64,000 nt of DNA from a virus. Its lineage: Duplodnaviria > Caudoviricetes. This document shows positions 16,414 to 62,371 of the stretch, piece by piece. The notes beneath the pieces were generated by a model. That model ran no database searches. It saw only the letters and a list, made by a program, of their open reading frames with translations, and was not told the DNA's origin. The position numbers were made by a program, and so were the translations under genes. The first letter of the stretch is position 1; every line of letters begins with the position of its first letter. The stretch spans positions 96,001 through 160,000 of the IMG/VR virus record IMGVR_UViG_3300043434_000734, one strand, 5' to 3'.

Positions 16414-16871
16414 TAAATAACATTGATTCCACACTCACTCAGAAGTTGTTTGGCTTTACTTTGTGATTCTTCCCATTTTTCTTTATTTTTTGTGGTACAA
16501 ACCTCCTTACAATACACTGTCTTTATACCTGAATTAACAATTCCCCTTGCACAATCCATACAAGGTAATCCAGATGTTAAATAAATTGTTGAATTTTTAA
16601 GGGACACACCTTCTAATGCCGCGTTATAAATAGCATTACGTTCTGCGTGTTCTATCCAGAAGTATTTTTCAGGTCTTTCCTGACGTCCTTGTAATGAATC
16701 ATCTAAACCTCTTGGGAATGAATTATAACCCGTAGAAAGAACGTTATTACCTTCGCCCACAACTACTGCACCTATCTGTGTAGATTGGTCCTTAGATTTA
16801 AGTTTAACCACTTCTGCAATCTCTAAAAAATATCGTACCCAATCCATTATATTAATTTTTGTTTTGACCAA
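16407..16871 (-). CDS. dCMP deaminase
   Basis: STGYN, HAERNAI, PCMDC zinc motifs. Confidence 0.92.
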   Translation of the reverse strand: MVKTKINIMDWVRYFLEIAEVVKLKSKDQSTQIGAVVVGEGNNVLSTGYNSFPRGLDDSLQGRQERPEKYFWIEHAERNAIYNAALEGVSLKNSTIYLTSGLPCMDCARGIVNSGIKTVYCKEVCTTKNKEKWEESQSKAKQLLSECGINVIYY

Positions 16872-21572: not shown

Positions 21573-21764
21573 ATGATTATAATTGACTTATCTAAAGAAA
21601 AAAGCATAGAGAGTGCGTTAAGGACTTACAAACAGAAAGTTCAAAAAACTAAACAGATTCAAAAATTGAGGGAAAGAAAAGAATTCACCAAACCTTCAGT
21701 TATTAAAAGAAATGAAAAGTTGAAGGCAGTCTATGTACAACAAATAAAAAATGGTCTTAATTAA
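21573..21764 (+). CDS. rpsU: Ribosomal protein bS21
   Basis: IESALRTYKQKV.KT.....LRERKEFTKPSVIKR (F.KPS..R signature), 63 aa. Confidence 0.92.
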   Translation: MIIIDLSKEKSIESALRTYKQKVQKTKQIQKLRERKEFTKPSVIKRNEKLKAVYVQQIKNGLN

Positions 21765-22508: not shown

Positions 22509-24320
22509 TTAGTCGTTTAATATGTCTTTTATTTTTGTTTCTATTTCATAAATATTCTTTTGTGCTCTTTCCATATCAAATAAGATATTGAAATCTTCGT
22601 TTTCCTCACCCAACATACCTAATATTTTTGATTTTTTTGTTTCACTTAGTGGTTCTTCACCTCCACCACTCGATGGTGGTGGGCCTCCACCCATATCCAT
22701 ACCACCTCCTTCGGCACCCTCACCTGATGCGGCATCCATTGCCTTTTCTCTTTCCTCCTCAGGTATACCATACTTCTTATCCACCTCATCAAATACTCCA
22801 GAACGTTTGATAACCATTTGAGAATTTGTTAATTCGAATCCCATTGCTCTTTCTAAACGTTGTTGTTGTAAATCAAGTAACACTTCACTATCACTCATAC
22901 CTAAGATATTTTTCTTGGCCCAAGTGTGTGAAACAGGTAAGATACCAACTTGTGATTGGTCAGACGTAGCGTCTTTATATAATGTAATTTTTTCTTTCCA
23001 CTGCTCAATACGTAATAAATCGGATTGTGCGGATGGGTTTGTTAATGATAATGTGAAGTTATTTAATTCATCTTCCATACCTAAAAGGTATAGTTGAATA
23101 AGTGCAATTTTATTTAATTCCTGTATTAACGATTTTTGAATTCTGTTAATTGTACGTGCAAAACGAATATCCATTAATGCTAAACTCTTACCCTCGCCAA
23201 CAACCTCCTCAAATCCTAAGAATGCCTTTGGGATACGTAAAGCGGCTAATAACTTTTTTTGAATATATTCAATATCCGCAATCTCACCTAAATTTTGAGC
23301 CCCCGGTAACGTTTCAATTGGGTTGGTTTGTGATGGGTCTCGAACAGGAATAAAATAATCTTGGTCAACGGCCATTTGGTTGTACCTCATATCCACTTGT
23401 CCATTACGTGGGTCGGAAATTTGGTCTCTCTTAAATTTGTTAGCCACACGTTGTACATATGGTTCAATATCTTTATCGTCCATATTACCAACAAATACTT
23501 TAAATACACGTCTTTCAGGTGCTCTCGACGTTCTATAAATTAACATAGCATCTTCAGCAAGTAAAAGTTGTTTCCATATTCTTCTAATCTTATCTAACAT
23601 AGATGTACCATATGGTAATTTTCTATCGTCACCTAATAATCTAAAATGTGCAATTTCCCAAGCTTGGAATTCCATATCTTTGTTCTTCCAAGTAAATCTC
23701 AATTCCCTTGATGGTACTTTTGAATCTTTATTTATGACTCCACCTGCGGTTTTACTTGTTGCGCCCTCTAATCTTTCTATTTCTATATTCGGTAATTGTT
23801 GTACTCCAACAATTCCTTTTTCGGGGTCAATTTTTAGATACACAAAATCATCACCGTACTTACACATACCACGAGCCCACATTTGTAAGTTCGTATTTAT
23901 ATCTAATTGATTATTAAATAAATCTTCTAATATGTTTTTAATTCTATCAGATTCTGAATATATAGTCAATATTTGACCTTTTTCGGACATAGTTGTCGAC
24001 TCTTCAGCATAAATGTCAAGTGCAGCTGAAATCTCAGGTGTAAACTCCATAGATTCAAAATCGTAATATGCAGCCAATCTATTTGGTTCATAATATACCG
24101 ATTGGTTATATAGTGATTGGTCTAACTTGGTCCACTTATCAGCAATGTATTGACTTTGTTGTGCTTGTAACATTGCCTTTTCATACTCTTCTCTACTATC
24201 TGTTTTTAATAATTCATCCTTATTGAAATTAAACGAAGGTGTGTTATCCTGTTTCACACGATTAGGATAACCAAACATTCTGGTCATTTTTTGGAATACT
24301 GTTAAATTTTGATTTGCCAT
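22509..24320 (-). CDS. gp20: Portal protein (T4 gp20 family)
   Basis: YRTSRAPERRVFKVFVGNM, DYFIPVR, LPGAQNLGEIADIEY.QKKL..ALRIP. Confidence 0.95.
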   Translation of the reverse strand: MANQNLTVFQKMTRMFGYPNRVKQDNTPSFNFNKDELLKTDSREEYEKAMLQAQQSQYIADKWTKLDQSLYNQSVYYEPNRLAAYYDFESMEFTPEISAALDIYAEESTTMSEKGQILTIYSESDRIKNILEDLFNNQLDINTNLQMWARGMCKYGDDFVYLKIDPEKGIVGVQQLPNIEIERLEGATSKTAGGVINKDSKVPSRELRFTWKNKDMEFQAWEIAHFRLLGDDRKLPYGTSMLDKIRRIWKQLLLAEDAMLIYRTSRAPERRVFKVFVGNMDDKDIEPYVQRVANKFKRDQISDPRNGQVDMRYNQMAVDQDYFIPVRDPSQTNPIETLPGAQNLGEIADIEYIQKKLLAALRIPKAFLGFEEVVGEGKSLALMDIRFARTINRIQKSLIQELNKIALIQLYLLGMEDELNNFTLSLTNPSAQSDLLRIEQWKEKITLYKDATSDQSQVGILPVSHTWAKKNILGMSDSEVLLDLQQQRLERAMGFELTNSQMVIKRSGVFDEVDKKYGIPEEEREKAMDAASGEGAEGGGMDMGGGPPPSSGGGEEPLSETKKSKILGMLGEENEDFNILFDMERAQKNIYEIETKIKDILND

Positions 24321-24374
24321 TGTATATAAATACTTTTCTTTACAATATAAACTAAATAATTAGCAATGGGAAGT

Positions 24375-33966: not shown

Positions 33967-34005
33967 ATACTTTACTTTTTGTTAAAAATATATATATTTA
34001 TATTC

Positions 34006-34108
34006 TCAGAGGTTCTCTTTGTCGATTACCTTTTCGTTTTTTTTCATAAGTAAGTGAAGTTGAATTCACCGAAAGACCTTAAAACCCCGACAAATCGTTG
34101 GGGTTTTT
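34006..34108 (+). ncRNA. Putative sRNA A
   Basis: TATTTATA at 33995-34002, internal hairpin, terminator 34082-34108; sequence blocks shared with 61656-61713. Confidence 0.5.
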
Positions 34109-34152
34109 ACTGCATTTTGTTTTCTCAAAATTATTTAGTATATTTACTTTAT

Positions 34153-56063: not shown

Positions 56064-56870
56064 GGCCGCCTATGGTCGATTAAAATAAACCACGAAAGTG
56101 GGATAAAGTGACGAGTCCTTGGTTGGGACAAGTTGCGGTTTCAGTAATGGAACTTGAGTAGGCAAGTGGAGTATCGTTGAACCTTAAGTACTGAGGGTAA
56201 CACTTTAGGGAAAGTGGTTTGATGACTGAGCAATCCGAGTTGTTTGGTTGAGGTGGGAACACCAATAAGAATAATCCATAGAGTTATTGTGAGAAATATG
56301 GTTATCCGACTATATGATTACGTGATTCAATATGATGGGAATCTTAAAACCGAAAGGTATGGTGAAGTACGAGTGGTGTCGTTATCATCCTTTATTAAAC
56401 TCTACCAAGGGTTTAGTTTTGAAGGGGTCCAAAAATATGGTAGCAGGGATGTTACAGAGAGTAGTTTAGTATCGAGTCGCTCAAAAGGTGGCTTGGCTAG
56501 GTGACGAACCACTACTTTCCAAATTCGGATAACTAAATTTTGTTAATTTTGGTTTAACAACTTAAAATCATACAAGAAAAAGTGTTCGTCAGTCGTTGTA
56601 GACAGGTGGCTACATAGTCGTGAGGGGTTCACGGCCACAAAGGGTCTCAAGCCCAATGTGATTTTTAAAAAAGTTCTCTAAACCCGCAAGGTTGAATCAG
56701 GGAGGCATCTTTGATGAGTAATGAGTATTAAAAGAGTATATAACGACTCAAGGATTGGTTAATCTAATTGACCGCCGCTGATTGGTACTACTCAAAAGGT
56801 AGTGGATATGGGAAGAATCAAATAATGTCCCTAAGTCAATCAAAAAATGGTGTAATCTCAGCCCTTTCTT
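56064..56870 (+). ncRNA. ~800-nt structured RNA, GOLLD-like candidate
   Basis: GC-enriched, no credible ORF, many hairpins, long-range 5'/3' pairing, next to tRNAs. Confidence 0.65.
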
Positions 56871-59435: not shown

Positions 59436-59836
59436 GGGGATGTCTGGTATTGATTTCAGGTATCAGGGATAAATGGCACGTAGTCAGAATTCATCTATGA
59501 CTTAAATCCACGGTGAAACATTTTAGACGGCAACGTTTACAACAATATGGAAATTGCAGGTTTACTTGCAACTTCTAAAGTAGCGGCCTAACCAAGTTAG
59601 CACTACACTCGGGTCGATGTACATATAACCTAGGAACAGAAGTACTTAAGGTGTGATACCACCTAAGAGTGTCAAAGGTCTCGTTCAGAGGGCTACCTTA
59701 AAGTGAACTCGACACAGTTATAGGGAACGATGTTAAAATAGGAACCTTTTATTTGTCTGTTGTGAACTAACAGAATAAACGTGTAGTCATTTATTGTTGA
59801 ACAGGAAAGACACGGGTTCGACTCCCGTCATCTCCA
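59436..59836 (+). ncRNA. ssrA: tmRNA; tag GNVYNNMEIAGLLATSKVAA* (59529-59591)
   Basis: ggggatg/catctcc-a acceptor with G3:U70, T-arm acggg-ttcgact-cccgt, tag ending VAA. Confidence 0.93.
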
Positions 59837-59839
59837 CAT

Positions 59840-59870
59840 AAAAAAACCCACCTAAATGGTGGGTTTTTTA
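59840..59870. terminator. Bidirectional terminator after tmRNA
   Basis: aaaaaacccacc-taaat-ggtgggtttttt. Confidence 0.88.
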
Positions 59871-61603
59871 TTTTCTATTAAACTCATTAGGTGTTCGGCT
59901 AATTCCATATGTCCCACTCTTCCAGTGTGACCGTCCATAACTCCACCATTGGTTTCATCTTTAATTAAACTATATTTCTTATAAGGTATCATATTGTCAA
60001 AACATTTCTTCTTGTGATTGACGGAACCAAAATGTTTAATATTAAATTCGTTGTGTGCGAACCTTTGTCTCTCAGGTGTTCCGTATTCAATGTTGACAAT
60101 TGCAATTTTTTTACCATTATCCGCCAATTTTTTCATCTCAACTAAATCAACGTCGGTTTTTAAATCAACAACATAATCACAATTATTGTTAATCACTTCT
60201 TTTAATTTATCATCGGTATCTCTCCAATTTGGTACCATTAAAGAATGTTTTAAATCAATACTTTCTTGTGACCATATGTTATTTGATACCACAATTTCAG
60301 GATCAACCCAAGTCCAATGGTATATTTTATTTTTGGGTAATAAATTTTTAATCACATCCATAAATTGACTTATTTCTGTCCACCAAATTGAATGAGTGTC
60401 TCTATTAATCGACAATTGTTGGGTACTCGATAAATCTACATCGTCGTTTTGTTTTGGATGTGGTGTGTTTGGTAAGATATCAACAAAGGAATTTACATTA
60501 TTCGCTAATTTAAATCTATTGATTGCTGTCCAACCAAATACCAAAATATCATTTGGTTTTATGGATTTGTAATTGTCCATAAATTTATCAAATATAGTGT
60601 AGTTAGAACATCCACCTATACCGTAGTTATGTAATTCAATGTCATATTTTTTAGAAATTATTTCACTGTAAGTTTCAGGTATGTCACCTAAAAAATCAAA
60701 ATAGTTTTTTGCCCAAACCGTACCAGCATCAAAGTGCGATTTAAATGTTTTTGTATGTGAATCACCAAACGCAAATAATCTCGGTTTTAATCTATCCTCA
60801 ATCATTTTAATTATTTTTTCACCATACATCTTATTACCAAAATAACCGGGATGTTTATCATCGGTAATACCGGGTACCTCATCTTTAATTGTTTGACCGT
60901 TGAATGTGCAGAACTGATTAACACAATTATATTCACCAAATTTTAAATTTTTTTTTGGGTCCAACAAAGAATAAAACTCATCGTATGGATTTTTCATACT
61001 CTCATCGTCAAACCAATAAAAGAATTCAATATTATTTTTTTCTAAAAAACTAAACAACCCAACAAGTTCACCTCTGTATCTATCAACATAGGCAACCGGA
61101 TTGTGATATTTTGATAAATATTCTTTAGTTTCGTCGGTAATTCTACCCTCAAAAAATTCACGTGAATACTTTATTTTATCTTTAGTGATAACTTCTTGTA
61201 TCTGTATTCCTGATAAATTACCAATATTTCTGTCATCGTCATATCTCACATTTGTAATTGCATAATCACCAATTTCATTATAATATTGGTCGACCCTATG
61301 TACTGGACTTGTAATCTCCAATAAGAATAAAGTTTTTCTTGCTTTCTCAATACCAATCTCTTCAATATGTTCATACGTTCTTCTAACTAGTCTTGGTGCT
61401 CCCGAACCCGAAAAAGCATCGTGTATTAATGAAACACCAAAATGGTTGGCGATGTATTTTGGATATGTGACATCTTTTTCATTATCCCATTCTATATTAT
61501 ATAATCTCTTATACTCATTTTTAATCATCCCTTGGTCTAAACCACCACCCGCAGTTAGTGAAGAACCATTAACATATATTCTTGTAAAGTTGTAATATTT
61601 CAT
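59852..61603 (-). CDS. Tandem SGNH-like domain protein, paralog of 33301-33966
   Basis: YVNGSSLT..DDKHP and FAFGDSHT..DGH. Confidence 0.65.
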   Translation of the reverse strand: MKYYNFTRIYVNGSSLTAGGGLDQGMIKNEYKRLYNIEWDNEKDVTYPKYIANHFGVSLIHDAFSGSGAPRLVRRTYEHIEEIGIEKARKTLFLLEITSPVHRVDQYYNEIGDYAITNVRYDDDRNIGNLSGIQIQEVITKDKIKYSREFFEGRITDETKEYLSKYHNPVAYVDRYRGELVGLFSFLEKNNIEFFYWFDDESMKNPYDEFYSLLDPKKNLKFGEYNCVNQFCTFNGQTIKDEVPGITDDKHPGYFGNKMYGEKIIKMIEDRLKPRLFAFGDSHTKTFKSHFDAGTVWAKNYFDFLGDIPETYSEIISKKYDIELHNYGIGGCSNYTIFDKFMDNYKSIKPNDILVFGWTAINRFKLANNVNSFVDILPNTPHPKQNDDVDLSSTQQLSINRDTHSIWWTEISQFMDVIKNLLPKNKIYHWTWVDPEIVVSNNIWSQESIDLKHSLMVPNWRDTDDKLKEVINNNCDYVVDLKTDVDLVEMKKLADNGKKIAIVNIEYGTPERQRFAHNEFNIKHFGSVNHKKKCFDNMIPYKKYSLIKDETNGGVMDGHTGRVGHMELAEHLMSLIENKKPTI

Positions 61604-61643: not shown

Positions 61644-61739
61644 TTAAACGAACAAAGAGGTCTTTAGGACCCCCTTGTCGAGATTAAGAACACCTCCTTT
61701 TCGTTTATATAAGTTATCGTTTAATGGCGACCAAACCAA
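61644..61739 (-). CDS. Possible 31-aa TTG-start leader peptide containing an extended SD
   Basis: (M)VWSPLNDNLYKRKGGVLNLDKGVLKTSLFV*; TATTTATA motif at 61751-61758. Confidence 0.35.
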   Translation of the reverse strand: MVWSPLNDNLYKRKGGVLNLDKGVLKTSLFV

Positions 61740-61762
61740 TTAAACTCTCTTATAAATATCGT

Positions 61763-62371
61763 TTATTTTTTAATTAATCGTTCTTTTAATATATTTTTTA
61801 CAGTTTCTTTTACTATAGATTCTTGTAATTTAACGTAACCTTGTTCTTTACCCAATTTTAAAACTTCATTGTAAATATCCTCAGTTATTTTAGTGTCATT
61901 CGGAGCCAAATACCTTATGTTTCTTAATTTACTTAATAATTCTGGTCCATAAATTTTACCATATTCGTCACCAAACAAAATAGTGTTCATTAAACCTATT
62001 TTGTTGTTTTTACAACCATAATCCCAATCATAGACTTTTTCATCACAATCTTTATAATTAAACGGTTTTGTTGGATTTTGTGCGGCTGGGTATCTTACTT
62101 TATAGTCAATAGTTGTTACAGATTTTTGTGGTTCGGTACTATTCGCTGATTGTTGAGTTGTTGACGATAATGTATCAGTTGTTAGATTCTTTTCATATGT
62201 TACATAATCACCCAAATCGATTTTATTATGAAACATATTCCAAAATTTCTTTCTACCCTCCGGACTTTGCATATTTGTTTTGAAATAATCATATGTAAAC
62301 TGTTTTCTTTGGTCAGAAAATTTTTCACCTAACTTATCCCATATTTTTTTTAATTCTAATTCGTTTACCAT
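61763..62371 (-). CDS. Hypothetical, probable virion protein
   Basis: C-terminal LQESIVKETVKNILKE motif. Confidence 0.7.
   Translation of the reverse strand: MVNELELKKIWDKLGEKFSDQRKQFTYDYFKTNMQSPEGRKKFWNMFHNKIDLGDYVTYEKNLTTDTLSSTTQQSANSTEPQKSVTTIDYKVRYPAAQNPTKPFNYKDCDEKVYDWDYGCKNNKIGLMNTILFGDEYGKIYGPELLSKLRNIRYLAPNDTKITEDIYNEVLKLGKEQGYVKLQESIVKETVKNILKERLIKK

Follow-up and report, generated by a model that had tools for sequence, protein, structure and literature searches.

Here, we identify a putative small RNA gene in a 64,000-nucleotide (nt) stretch of a Caudoviricetes genome (positions 96,001 to 160,000 of IMG/VR record IMGVR_UViG_3300043434_000734; hereafter, the window). The predicted RNA carries an extended Shine-Dalgarno (SD) sequence that is perfectly complementary to the 3' tail of the 16S rRNA of Flavobacteriaceae, and no start codon follows it. 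We suggest with moderate confidence that the RNA is a start-codon-less mimic of the initiation region of the host mRNA for ribosomal protein bS21, rpsU, and that it targets the 16S tail; comparison across family members and hosts speaks strongly for selection to pair with this tail. By targeting the hidden 3' tail of the host 16S rRNA, the small RNA probably aids the phage in taking over the ribosomes of its host.

GAACACCTCCTTT is present as an exact match on the plus strand at 61688-61700. No second copy exists in the window when both strands are searched with up to 2 mismatches allowed, and from the composition of the window 0.0012 (order 0) to 0.0023 (order 1) exact copies are expected by chance per window. 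A sequence-only reading of this stretch had reported this 13-nt copy of the Bacteroidota 16S tail, with a hand estimate of ~1e-3 for a chance hit, and the computed values agree with that estimate. The 16S end that it had given is also borne out: GAACACCTCCTTT equals the 16S 3' tail of Flavobacteriaceae, in which a Lutimonas 16S gene ends in ...GCGGCTGGAACACCTCCTTTCT and all matches listed read ...CTGGAACACCTCCTTT (75 of 121 sampled genomes with a match). On the minus strand, the 13-mer reads AAAGGAGGUGUUC and is followed in the window by no ATG, GTG or TTG at SD spacing; this agrees with the earlier description of a maximal SD that follows a TATTTATA-type motif and has no start codon. The window has 32% G+C, holds 24 tRNA genes and is part of a large phage. 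Inspection of leaders showed that its genes have A/T-rich leaders without SDs, as also read earlier and as expected for a Bacteroidota host. AGGAGG is found 13 times on the minus strand of the window (e.g., at 22703, 16501 and 29180) and 4 times on its plus strand, with ~5 per strand expected by a hand estimate from base composition; AAGGAGGTG at 22703 and TAAGGAGGT at 16501, both on the minus strand, lie within coding regions.

The 13-mer lies in a 159-nt spacer between two minus-strand open reading frames (ORFs) of 202 aa (61763-62371) and 583 aa (59852-61603). Neither protein has a Pfam or PHROG match, and no relatives of the upstream 202-aa protein were found in IMG/VR. We assign the following features to the spacer.

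61645 to 61748, minus strand: small RNA, with ends inferred from the promoter motif and the U-rich tail.
61752 to 61759, minus strand: promoter-like motif ATATTTAT; family consensus GATATTTAT.
61719 to 61745, minus strand: 5' hairpin P1 with apical sequence GGUUUGGUCGCC; shows covariation.
61688 to 61706, minus strand: extended SD AAACGAAAAGGAGGUGUUC; its 13-nt core at 61688-61700 is the perfect complement of the 16S tail GAACACCUCCUUU.
61680 to 61696, minus strand: small hairpin P3, GAGGU paired with AUCUC around the 7-nt loop GUUCUUA; partly masks the SD.
61646 to 61678, minus strand: terminator-like hairpin P4 including its tail; stem 61653-61677, extending to A61678-U61652, followed by the U-rich UUCGUUU.

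Starting from proteins with 59-89% identity to the 583-aa protein, and then by two pattern scans of IMG/VR, we recovered at least 77 loci with at least 55 unique sequences, almost all on phage contigs of up to 335 kb. The search patterns fix the apex of P1 (the apical 12-mer) and AAAAGGAGGT or ATCTCG, and invariance at these sites is, therefore, partly by construction; no constraint was placed on the AAACG flank, the R site or the loop. With the family model R1, the window gives a single match, at 126.6 bits. The defining pattern of the small RNA was found in none of 201 sampled Bacteroidia genomes, and among GenBank phages (INPHARED) there was no match to the 3.9-kb region or the 124-nt RNA and no cultured carrier was found.

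Four observations support the idea that the small RNA is a free-standing gene of ~100 nt on the minus strand with its own promoter-like motif and terminator-like hairpin. First, the motif GATATTTAT lies ~7-10 nt before a conserved AGAG at the inferred 5' end of the RNA and is unchanged in all 55 unique members listed. Second, in the family alignment, P1 and P4 covary: 6 of the 9 pairs of P1 are changed on both sides, with 95.5% of cells paired, and 3 of the 8 pairs of P4 are changed on both sides, with 97.9% of cells paired, while the apical loops of P4 are exchanged between lineages (CUAAA, UUCG and GCAA). Third, the minus-strand fold of the small RNA has an energy of −30.7 kcal/mol (z −3.6). 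Fourth, sequence and structure are conserved regardless of the flanking genes. All 583-aa homologues at 59-89% identity have an upstream spacer of ~150 nt holding the element, whereas the gene beyond it differs, with upstream genes of 177-328 aa and unrelated sizes. Moreover, many loci lack the 583-aa gene, and a tmRNA gene directly follows the small RNA. The intergenic RNA element proposed from the sequence alone is, thus, a conserved family. The neighbours of the gene in the window are the following.

59852 to 61603, minus strand: 583-aa gene, located between the small RNA and the tmRNA gene in the window lineage; not part of the element.
59436 to 59839, plus strand: phage tmRNA gene, a convergent neighbour of the small RNA gene.
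56457 to 56864, plus strand: full-length GOLLD RNA (314 bits), adjoining the tRNA array ~2.6 kb upstream of the tmRNA gene.

The small RNA is syntenic with tmRNA and tRNA genes. The tmRNA gene lies downstream on the opposite strand in 42 of the 77 loci listed, at 26-84 nt in 20 of them and at 0.5-2.5 kb in 22; at 1.8 kb, the window belongs to the latter. This context varies, but the tmRNA gene, where present, is always downstream and on the opposite strand, which argues against the element as a leader of the 583-aa gene. We, therefore, rejected a 5' untranslated region or attenuator of the 583-aa gene: many copies end in the terminator and a convergent tmRNA gene, and a 583-aa homologue with 47% identity (L001) has no such element upstream. 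By this comparison, the 583-aa gene is an insertion in the window lineage. Homologues of the 583-aa protein (P0001-P0099) are widespread in these phages, and a few have a precomputed match to the GDSL lipase/acylhydrolase family (PF00657). For the phage tmRNA, whose gene is the constant convergent partner of the small RNA gene across the family, an unusual tag peptide, GNVYNNMEIAGLLATSKVAA, is predicted.

The strand of the RNA follows from its hairpins. Many pairs in P1 and P4 are G-U pairs, which would be A-C mismatches if read from the plus strand; these hairpins covary, and their G-U pairs place the RNA on the minus strand. The 159-nt spacer also folds better on the minus strand (−39.3 kcal/mol, z −3.8) than on the plus strand (−27.5 kcal/mol, z −1.9). 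The sequence-only reading had offered, as one of two options, a plus-strand anti-SD mimic that would silence host mRNAs with an SD, rpsU among them. The plus strand does carry the tail sequence literally; however, the copy is limited to 13 nt of 16S with flanks unrelated to 16S, the plus-strand fold is far worse, the promoter motif and the U-rich tail are on the minus strand, and the G-U pairs of P1 and P4 are lost. We consider this option, in which such host mRNAs would be sequestered, hardly credible.

Similarly, we give next to no weight to the idea that the locus is only a junction between a terminator and a promoter, in which an A-tract and a G-rich stem look like an SD and the 13-nt match is due to chance. 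P4 is terminator-like, and AAAAGGGAG...CTCCCTTTTTTT followed by TATTTATA is also seen at other junctions of the window. However, the ~60 nt that precede the terminator, with P1 and the SD string among them, are conserved with covariation across the 55 unique members listed in differing gene contexts, the expected number of 13-nt matches is 0.001-0.002, and the SD lies outside the terminator stem. A long outer stem specific to the window, AAAAGGAGGUGU with ACAUUCCCUUUU, was rejected because its 3' side is not conserved. We also considered by eye, and rejected, an anti-terminator in which the SD would pair with the 3' arm of P4: it is lost in the lineage with the UUCG loop, and the context excludes cis-regulation. 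Scans of Rfam 15 with gathering and permissive thresholds gave no family at E<0.1 and nothing reaching the gathering threshold at the locus; the best match was Yfr11, with 21.7 bits versus a gathering threshold of 44 (E 0.25).

The SD string is the part of the RNA that points to the ribosome. The family shares the invariant string AAACGAAA(A)GGAGGU, and in 51 of the 55 unique members listed it is part of 12-16 contiguous Watson-Crick bases to a Bacteroidia tail. In P3, 99.6% of cells are paired, no pair is changed on both sides, and a loop of 5-8 nt separates the conserved arms; the first four bases of this loop extend the complementarity to the 16S tail. The longest match, via the P3 loop, is GAAAGGAGGUAUUCCA and covers 16 of the 17 tail bases that are single-stranded as judged from the Lutimonas 16S sequence and general knowledge of helix 45. 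P3 requires only GAGGU while the complementarity reaches 12-16 nt, and the SD string, therefore, appears to be selected for the 16S tail beyond the needs of structure. Binding of the RNA to ribosomes with a free anti-SD, as the sequence-only reading had put forward, fits such selection; a role as a sensor or sponge for these ribosomes would be a candidate function. The predicted duplex with the C-type tail described below has −13.6 to −23.3 kcal/mol across the family and −22.6 kcal/mol for the window. These energies fall inside the range reported for rpsU SDs, and the helices are in line with an extended rpsU SD (9-13 bp or more, ΔG below ~−13 kcal/mol, matched to the tail of the organism itself). 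Within the predicted fold of the RNA, the SD segment has a mean unpaired probability of mostly 0.3-0.6 (range 0.23-0.92).

The members outside the 12-16-nt rule are L090 and L143 (A-to-G change), L101 (inserted G) and L137 (9 nt kept). In our reading, the changes in L090, L101 and L143 may each keep a G-U pair at the altered site. The rare variants of the SD string, AAAGGAGGGGUCC, AAAGGGGGU and AAAGGGAGGU, are found at L137 5673-5799, L090 222-344, L143 10081-10205 and L101 1586-1707, and the GGGGG form is also present in one host rpsU leader (G149).

Two further elements of the predicted fold are less constant or lack a partner. P2, in which the UUCGUUU tail pairs with AAACGAA in most sequences and closes a predicted three-way junction, is only 80% paired and is disrupted in 23 sequences. 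For the apical sequence of P1, no partner beyond the expectation from shuffles was found in 16S, tmRNA or GOLLD, for the latter two without separate shuffles; its best 16S site is weaker than the best sites of shuffles. The linker following P1 contains a conserved GAUAA.

The region after the SD string argues against translation of the RNA itself. Across the family there is no ATG, GTG or TTG 5-10 nt downstream that opens a conserved ORF, and the downstream region has indels of 1-3 nt. The possible TTG upstream ORF of the sequence-only reading has 31 codons in the window in a mechanical sense, but did not survive comparison with relatives, which have 1-, 2- and 3-nt indels inside it (alignment A5). 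A genuine SD for a tiny peptide could make use of a noncanonical start such as the invariant AUC 5-8 nt after GGAGGU, and AUCUCG is indeed at start-codon spacing in all members listed. However, AUC is a very poor start codon, and the frame after it is not conserved, with 6 codons in the window type and, in the type with the UUCG loop, no early stop before it runs through the terminator stem. We regard such a peptide as very improbable.

The base after GGAGGU also links the small RNA to host tails. Among the 55 unique members listed, 22 have G and 32 have A at this site, with GGAGGGGUCC in L137, giving two forms of the RNA, ...GGAGGUGUUC and ...GGAGGUAUUC. These match the two common forms of Bacteroidia 16S tails in a class-wide sampling, ...GGAACACCUCCUUU and ...GGAAUACCUCCUUU (GAACACC versus GAAUACC): GUUC is the exact complement of the first (C) and AUUC of the second (U). 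Rare tails with GAUCACC, GAUUACC and GACCACC at nt 1533 are also present among G139-G227. Host rpsU leaders follow the same rule. Among hosts with a strong rpsU SD, the base opposite nt 1533 is G in 5/5 C-type hosts (GGAGGUG) and A in 3/3 U-type hosts (GGAGGUA); an rpsU SD is absent from many sampled hosts with either tail. The leaders of these hosts with a strong SD read AACGAGAGGAGGUGU, AAACGAGAGGAGGUAUUU or AACGAAAGGGGGUGA; they and the phage RNA have AACGA(R)A(R)GGAGGU(R)U in common, including the AAACG flank of the phage SD string. Leaders of the Lutimonas type read GAAAGGAGGUG. By the rpsU rule, genomes resembling Chitinophaga (GGAGGUAA) would be U-type; metagenome-assembled genomes (MAGs) of this kind lack 16S genes. 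In one Flavobacterium sp. MAG, which includes a G-type phage contig, the rpsU leader is AACGAGAGGAGGUGUC and G-type as well (n = 1), co-binning in a MAG being a weak host link. Two more NCBI contigs did not help to type hosts; they derive from a bulk metagenome assembly, and the element is in neither.

A role at the ribosome is in line with what is known about bS21. In Flavobacteriales, the proteins bS21, bS18 and bS6 bury the anti-SD; an extended SD, of 9-13 bp, is present on rpsU alone, which is translated by ribosomes free of bS21 (PMC9976891). In Bacteroidia, bS21 holds the single-stranded tail; a 13-bp SD-ASD (anti-SD) helix on rpsU mRNA sterically excludes bS21, and 65% of wild-type complexes are without bS21, as reported in 2026 (PMC13000457). 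The growth defect caused by ablation of the anti-SD is largely rescued by an SD-less rpsU leader (PMC13000453). The authors of the work on autoregulation speculated that phages with bS21 encode a product that aids bS21 exchange (PMC9976891). The window encodes such a bS21.

21573 to 21764, plus strand: phage bS21 gene, 63 aa, Tyr54 kept (Pfam PF01165, 3e-11); upstream host-type motif TAtaTTTG.

The link to phage bS21 drawn by the sequence-only reading is supported by related phages: the element is present in relatives with bS21, a bS21 gene was found in each of the 5 near-complete carrier genomes searched, and 8 of the best 80 bS21 contigs in IMG/VR are also on the list of carriers. The phage bS21 proteins are closely similar to each other, and none of the bS21 genes in the window and 5 relatives has an SD. 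The small RNA does not drive rpsU; the bS21 gene of the window is 40 kb away, and the small RNA is followed by its terminator and the convergent tmRNA gene. Weak matches of R1 on more bS21 records (2, 27.5 bits) consist of the promoter motif and the terminator and lack the central 34 nt; we rejected these as non-members. In a 7.1-Mb MAG holding a bS21 contig, R1 had no match among the 150 of 2063 candidates scored.

We also considered that the small RNA, which co-occurs with phage bS21, binds the bS21 protein directly, with P3 imitating the SD/anti-SD duplex; the RNA would then be either a sponge that takes up host bS21 or a holder of the phage protein. P6 of OLE RNA, an SD/ASD mimic that is bound by bS21 (PMC12054373), provides a precedent, and P3 is invariant and almost always paired. 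However, a 5-bp stem needs no tail complementarity of 12-16 nt, and yet the loop bases extend this complementarity; the G/A dimorphism that tracks the host tail forms is left unexplained; bS21 in Bacteroidia holds the single-stranded tail and is excluded by the helix; and GAGGU in P3 pairs with AUCUC, which differs from the host CCUCC. Thus, bS21 binding appears improbable to us.

A second conserved RNA, possibly the "sRNA A" of the sequence-only reading, bears on another explanation.

33994 to 34110, plus strand: second intergenic RNA candidate, with promoter motif ATATTTAT and its own terminator hairpin.

In 4/5 related phage genomes, this RNA is 83-93% identical, and its distance from bS21 is ~12.4 kb both in the window and in G125. 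The conserved AAACGAAAAGG of the small RNA finds its exact 11-nt complement, CCUUUUCGUUU, in this second RNA. The predicted duplex of the two RNAs has −44.1 kcal/mol versus −31.0 +/− 4.6 kcal/mol for shuffles, and 3/500 shuffles reach this value. The 5' part of the second RNA (…CUCUUUGUCGAUUACCUUUUCGUUU…) resembles the 3' arm of the SD-containing RNA. The small RNA could, then, be an ordinary base-pairing RNA with a purine-rich seed for the second RNA or for phage or host mRNAs, the likeness to an SD being incidental. The exact complement in a conserved, promoter-driven intergenic RNA and the duplex energy fit such an RNA. By contrast, the complement spans AAACGAAAAGG only, without GGAGGURUUC; the partner site in the second RNA is unchanged across genomes with G-type and A-type and with 3-A and 4-A small RNAs; a single exact 11-mer is weak, since 2.9 sites with up to one mismatch are expected versus 3 observed; and the likeness to rpsU leaders is left unexplained. 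We therefore consider an ordinary base-pairing RNA unlikely and treat the link between the two RNAs as a lead only.

How might a mimic of the rpsU initiation region act? We suggest that the exposed A-run and the loop bases RUUC(C) would nucleate on the single-stranded tail UGGAAYACCUCCUUUCU, and that the weak 5-bp P3 would then open into a 12-16-bp helix, with the A-run and the loop bases serving as toeholds. As on rpsU mRNA, this helix would be incompatible with bound bS21, and it would occupy the anti-SD in its only known essential use in these hosts. The small RNA may compete with host rpsU mRNA for ribosomes free of bS21, displace host bS21, or both. The phage bS21 mRNA, being SD-less, would escape the block and its product would repopulate the ribosomes. 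The G/A base opposite 16S nt 1533 would tune the small RNA to hosts with C or U at this position, and P4, which starts at the would-be site of a start codon, may keep the RNA out of the mRNA channel. In its most far-reaching form, the small RNA would be a trans-acting ribosome remodeller, in which a 13-16-bp helix ejects host bS21, blocks rpsU as the only SD-dependent mRNA of the host and hands the ribosomes to the phage SD-less bS21. In this form, the G/A base opposite nt 1533 would be a determinant of host range and the second RNA at 33994-34110 possibly an antidote or timer. We regard this full scenario as possible rather than probable.

Several points weigh against the proposal that the small RNA mimics the rpsU initiation region to target the 16S tail. 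The phage bS21 keeps Tyr54, and the helix should, therefore, exclude phage bS21 as well, so that the RNA must leave first. GAGGU pairs with the invariant AUCUC and P3 shows no covariation; thus, conservation there could be structural. Likewise, AAACGAA has potential partners elsewhere, in the 3' tail of the small RNA (P2) and in the second RNA. The search patterns under-sample variation at the P1 apex and the AUCUCG sites. The host link of G-type and A-type phages consists of the one MAG co-binning. No copy of the small RNA was found on five fragmentary bS21 contigs, which at 25-65% completeness are uninformative. Finally, the promoter, the ends and the pairing of the small RNA are all inferred.

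The promoter-like motif of the small RNA is shared with other sites in the window. RTATTTAT has 23 copies, of which 16 are intergenic and 11 lie on the same strand 12-29 nt before a start codon, and it looks like a promoter element of the phage. Examples are the sites at 24333, 26162, 39232, 46437 and 63618, all on the minus strand, and often 4 nt separate the end of the motif from the ATG. This spacing suggests a phage-specific promoter class that gives rise to leaderless or near-leaderless mRNAs. Other genes of the window, including that for bS21, have a host-type TAnnTTTG motif in place of RTATTTAT.

Among known systems, the closest to the small RNA is the rpsU leader of the host. The two share the complementarity of 12-16 nt to the tail, AACGA(R)A(R)GGAGGU(R)U, the base matched to nt 1533 and an A/U-rich spacer (PMC9976891, PMC13000457, PMC13000453). 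The small RNA would work like this leader but outside its class: it has no start codon or ORF, is not at rpsU, and is a structured RNA of ~100 nt with its own promoter-like motif and terminator hairpin. Moreover, in the phages that carry it, the bS21 gene itself is SD-less, unlike host rpsU. OLE RNA P6 is similar in being noncoding, in having an SD-type sequence paired within the molecule and in its link to bS21; however, OLE is a cellular RNA of ~600 nt from Bacillota that carries the anti-SD itself, whereas the small RNA is phage-borne, matches the host on the SD side only and has complementarity beyond the stem (PMC12054373). The tmRNA, the tRNA array and GOLLD of the same phage module share neighbourhood, promoter motif and translation theme with the small RNA but no likeness in sequence or structure. 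Decoy RNAs such as 6S for RNA polymerase, CsrB/RsmZ for CsrA and prophage anti-sRNAs such as AgvB mimic a ligand to titrate a machine or a regulator. The small RNA shares this concept, with the 16S 3' tail and bS21 occupancy as its proposed target. In the literature searched, we found no described RNA that is aimed at the 16S tail and bS21 occupancy and, thus, no precedent.

The ribosomes of Bacteroidia keep a perfect anti-SD and yet hide it, and the only essential use shown for it so far is bS21 autoregulation. The small RNA speaks to the questions of why many aquatic phages carry bS21 and how the phage copy could displace the host protein. If our proposal is correct, we know of no other natural RNA that changes the protein composition of the ribosome by pairing with rRNA. 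The small RNA is a concrete candidate for the exchange-promoting phage product that had been speculated upon (PMC9976891), and the co-variation of phage and host would, in that case, be readable at one base.

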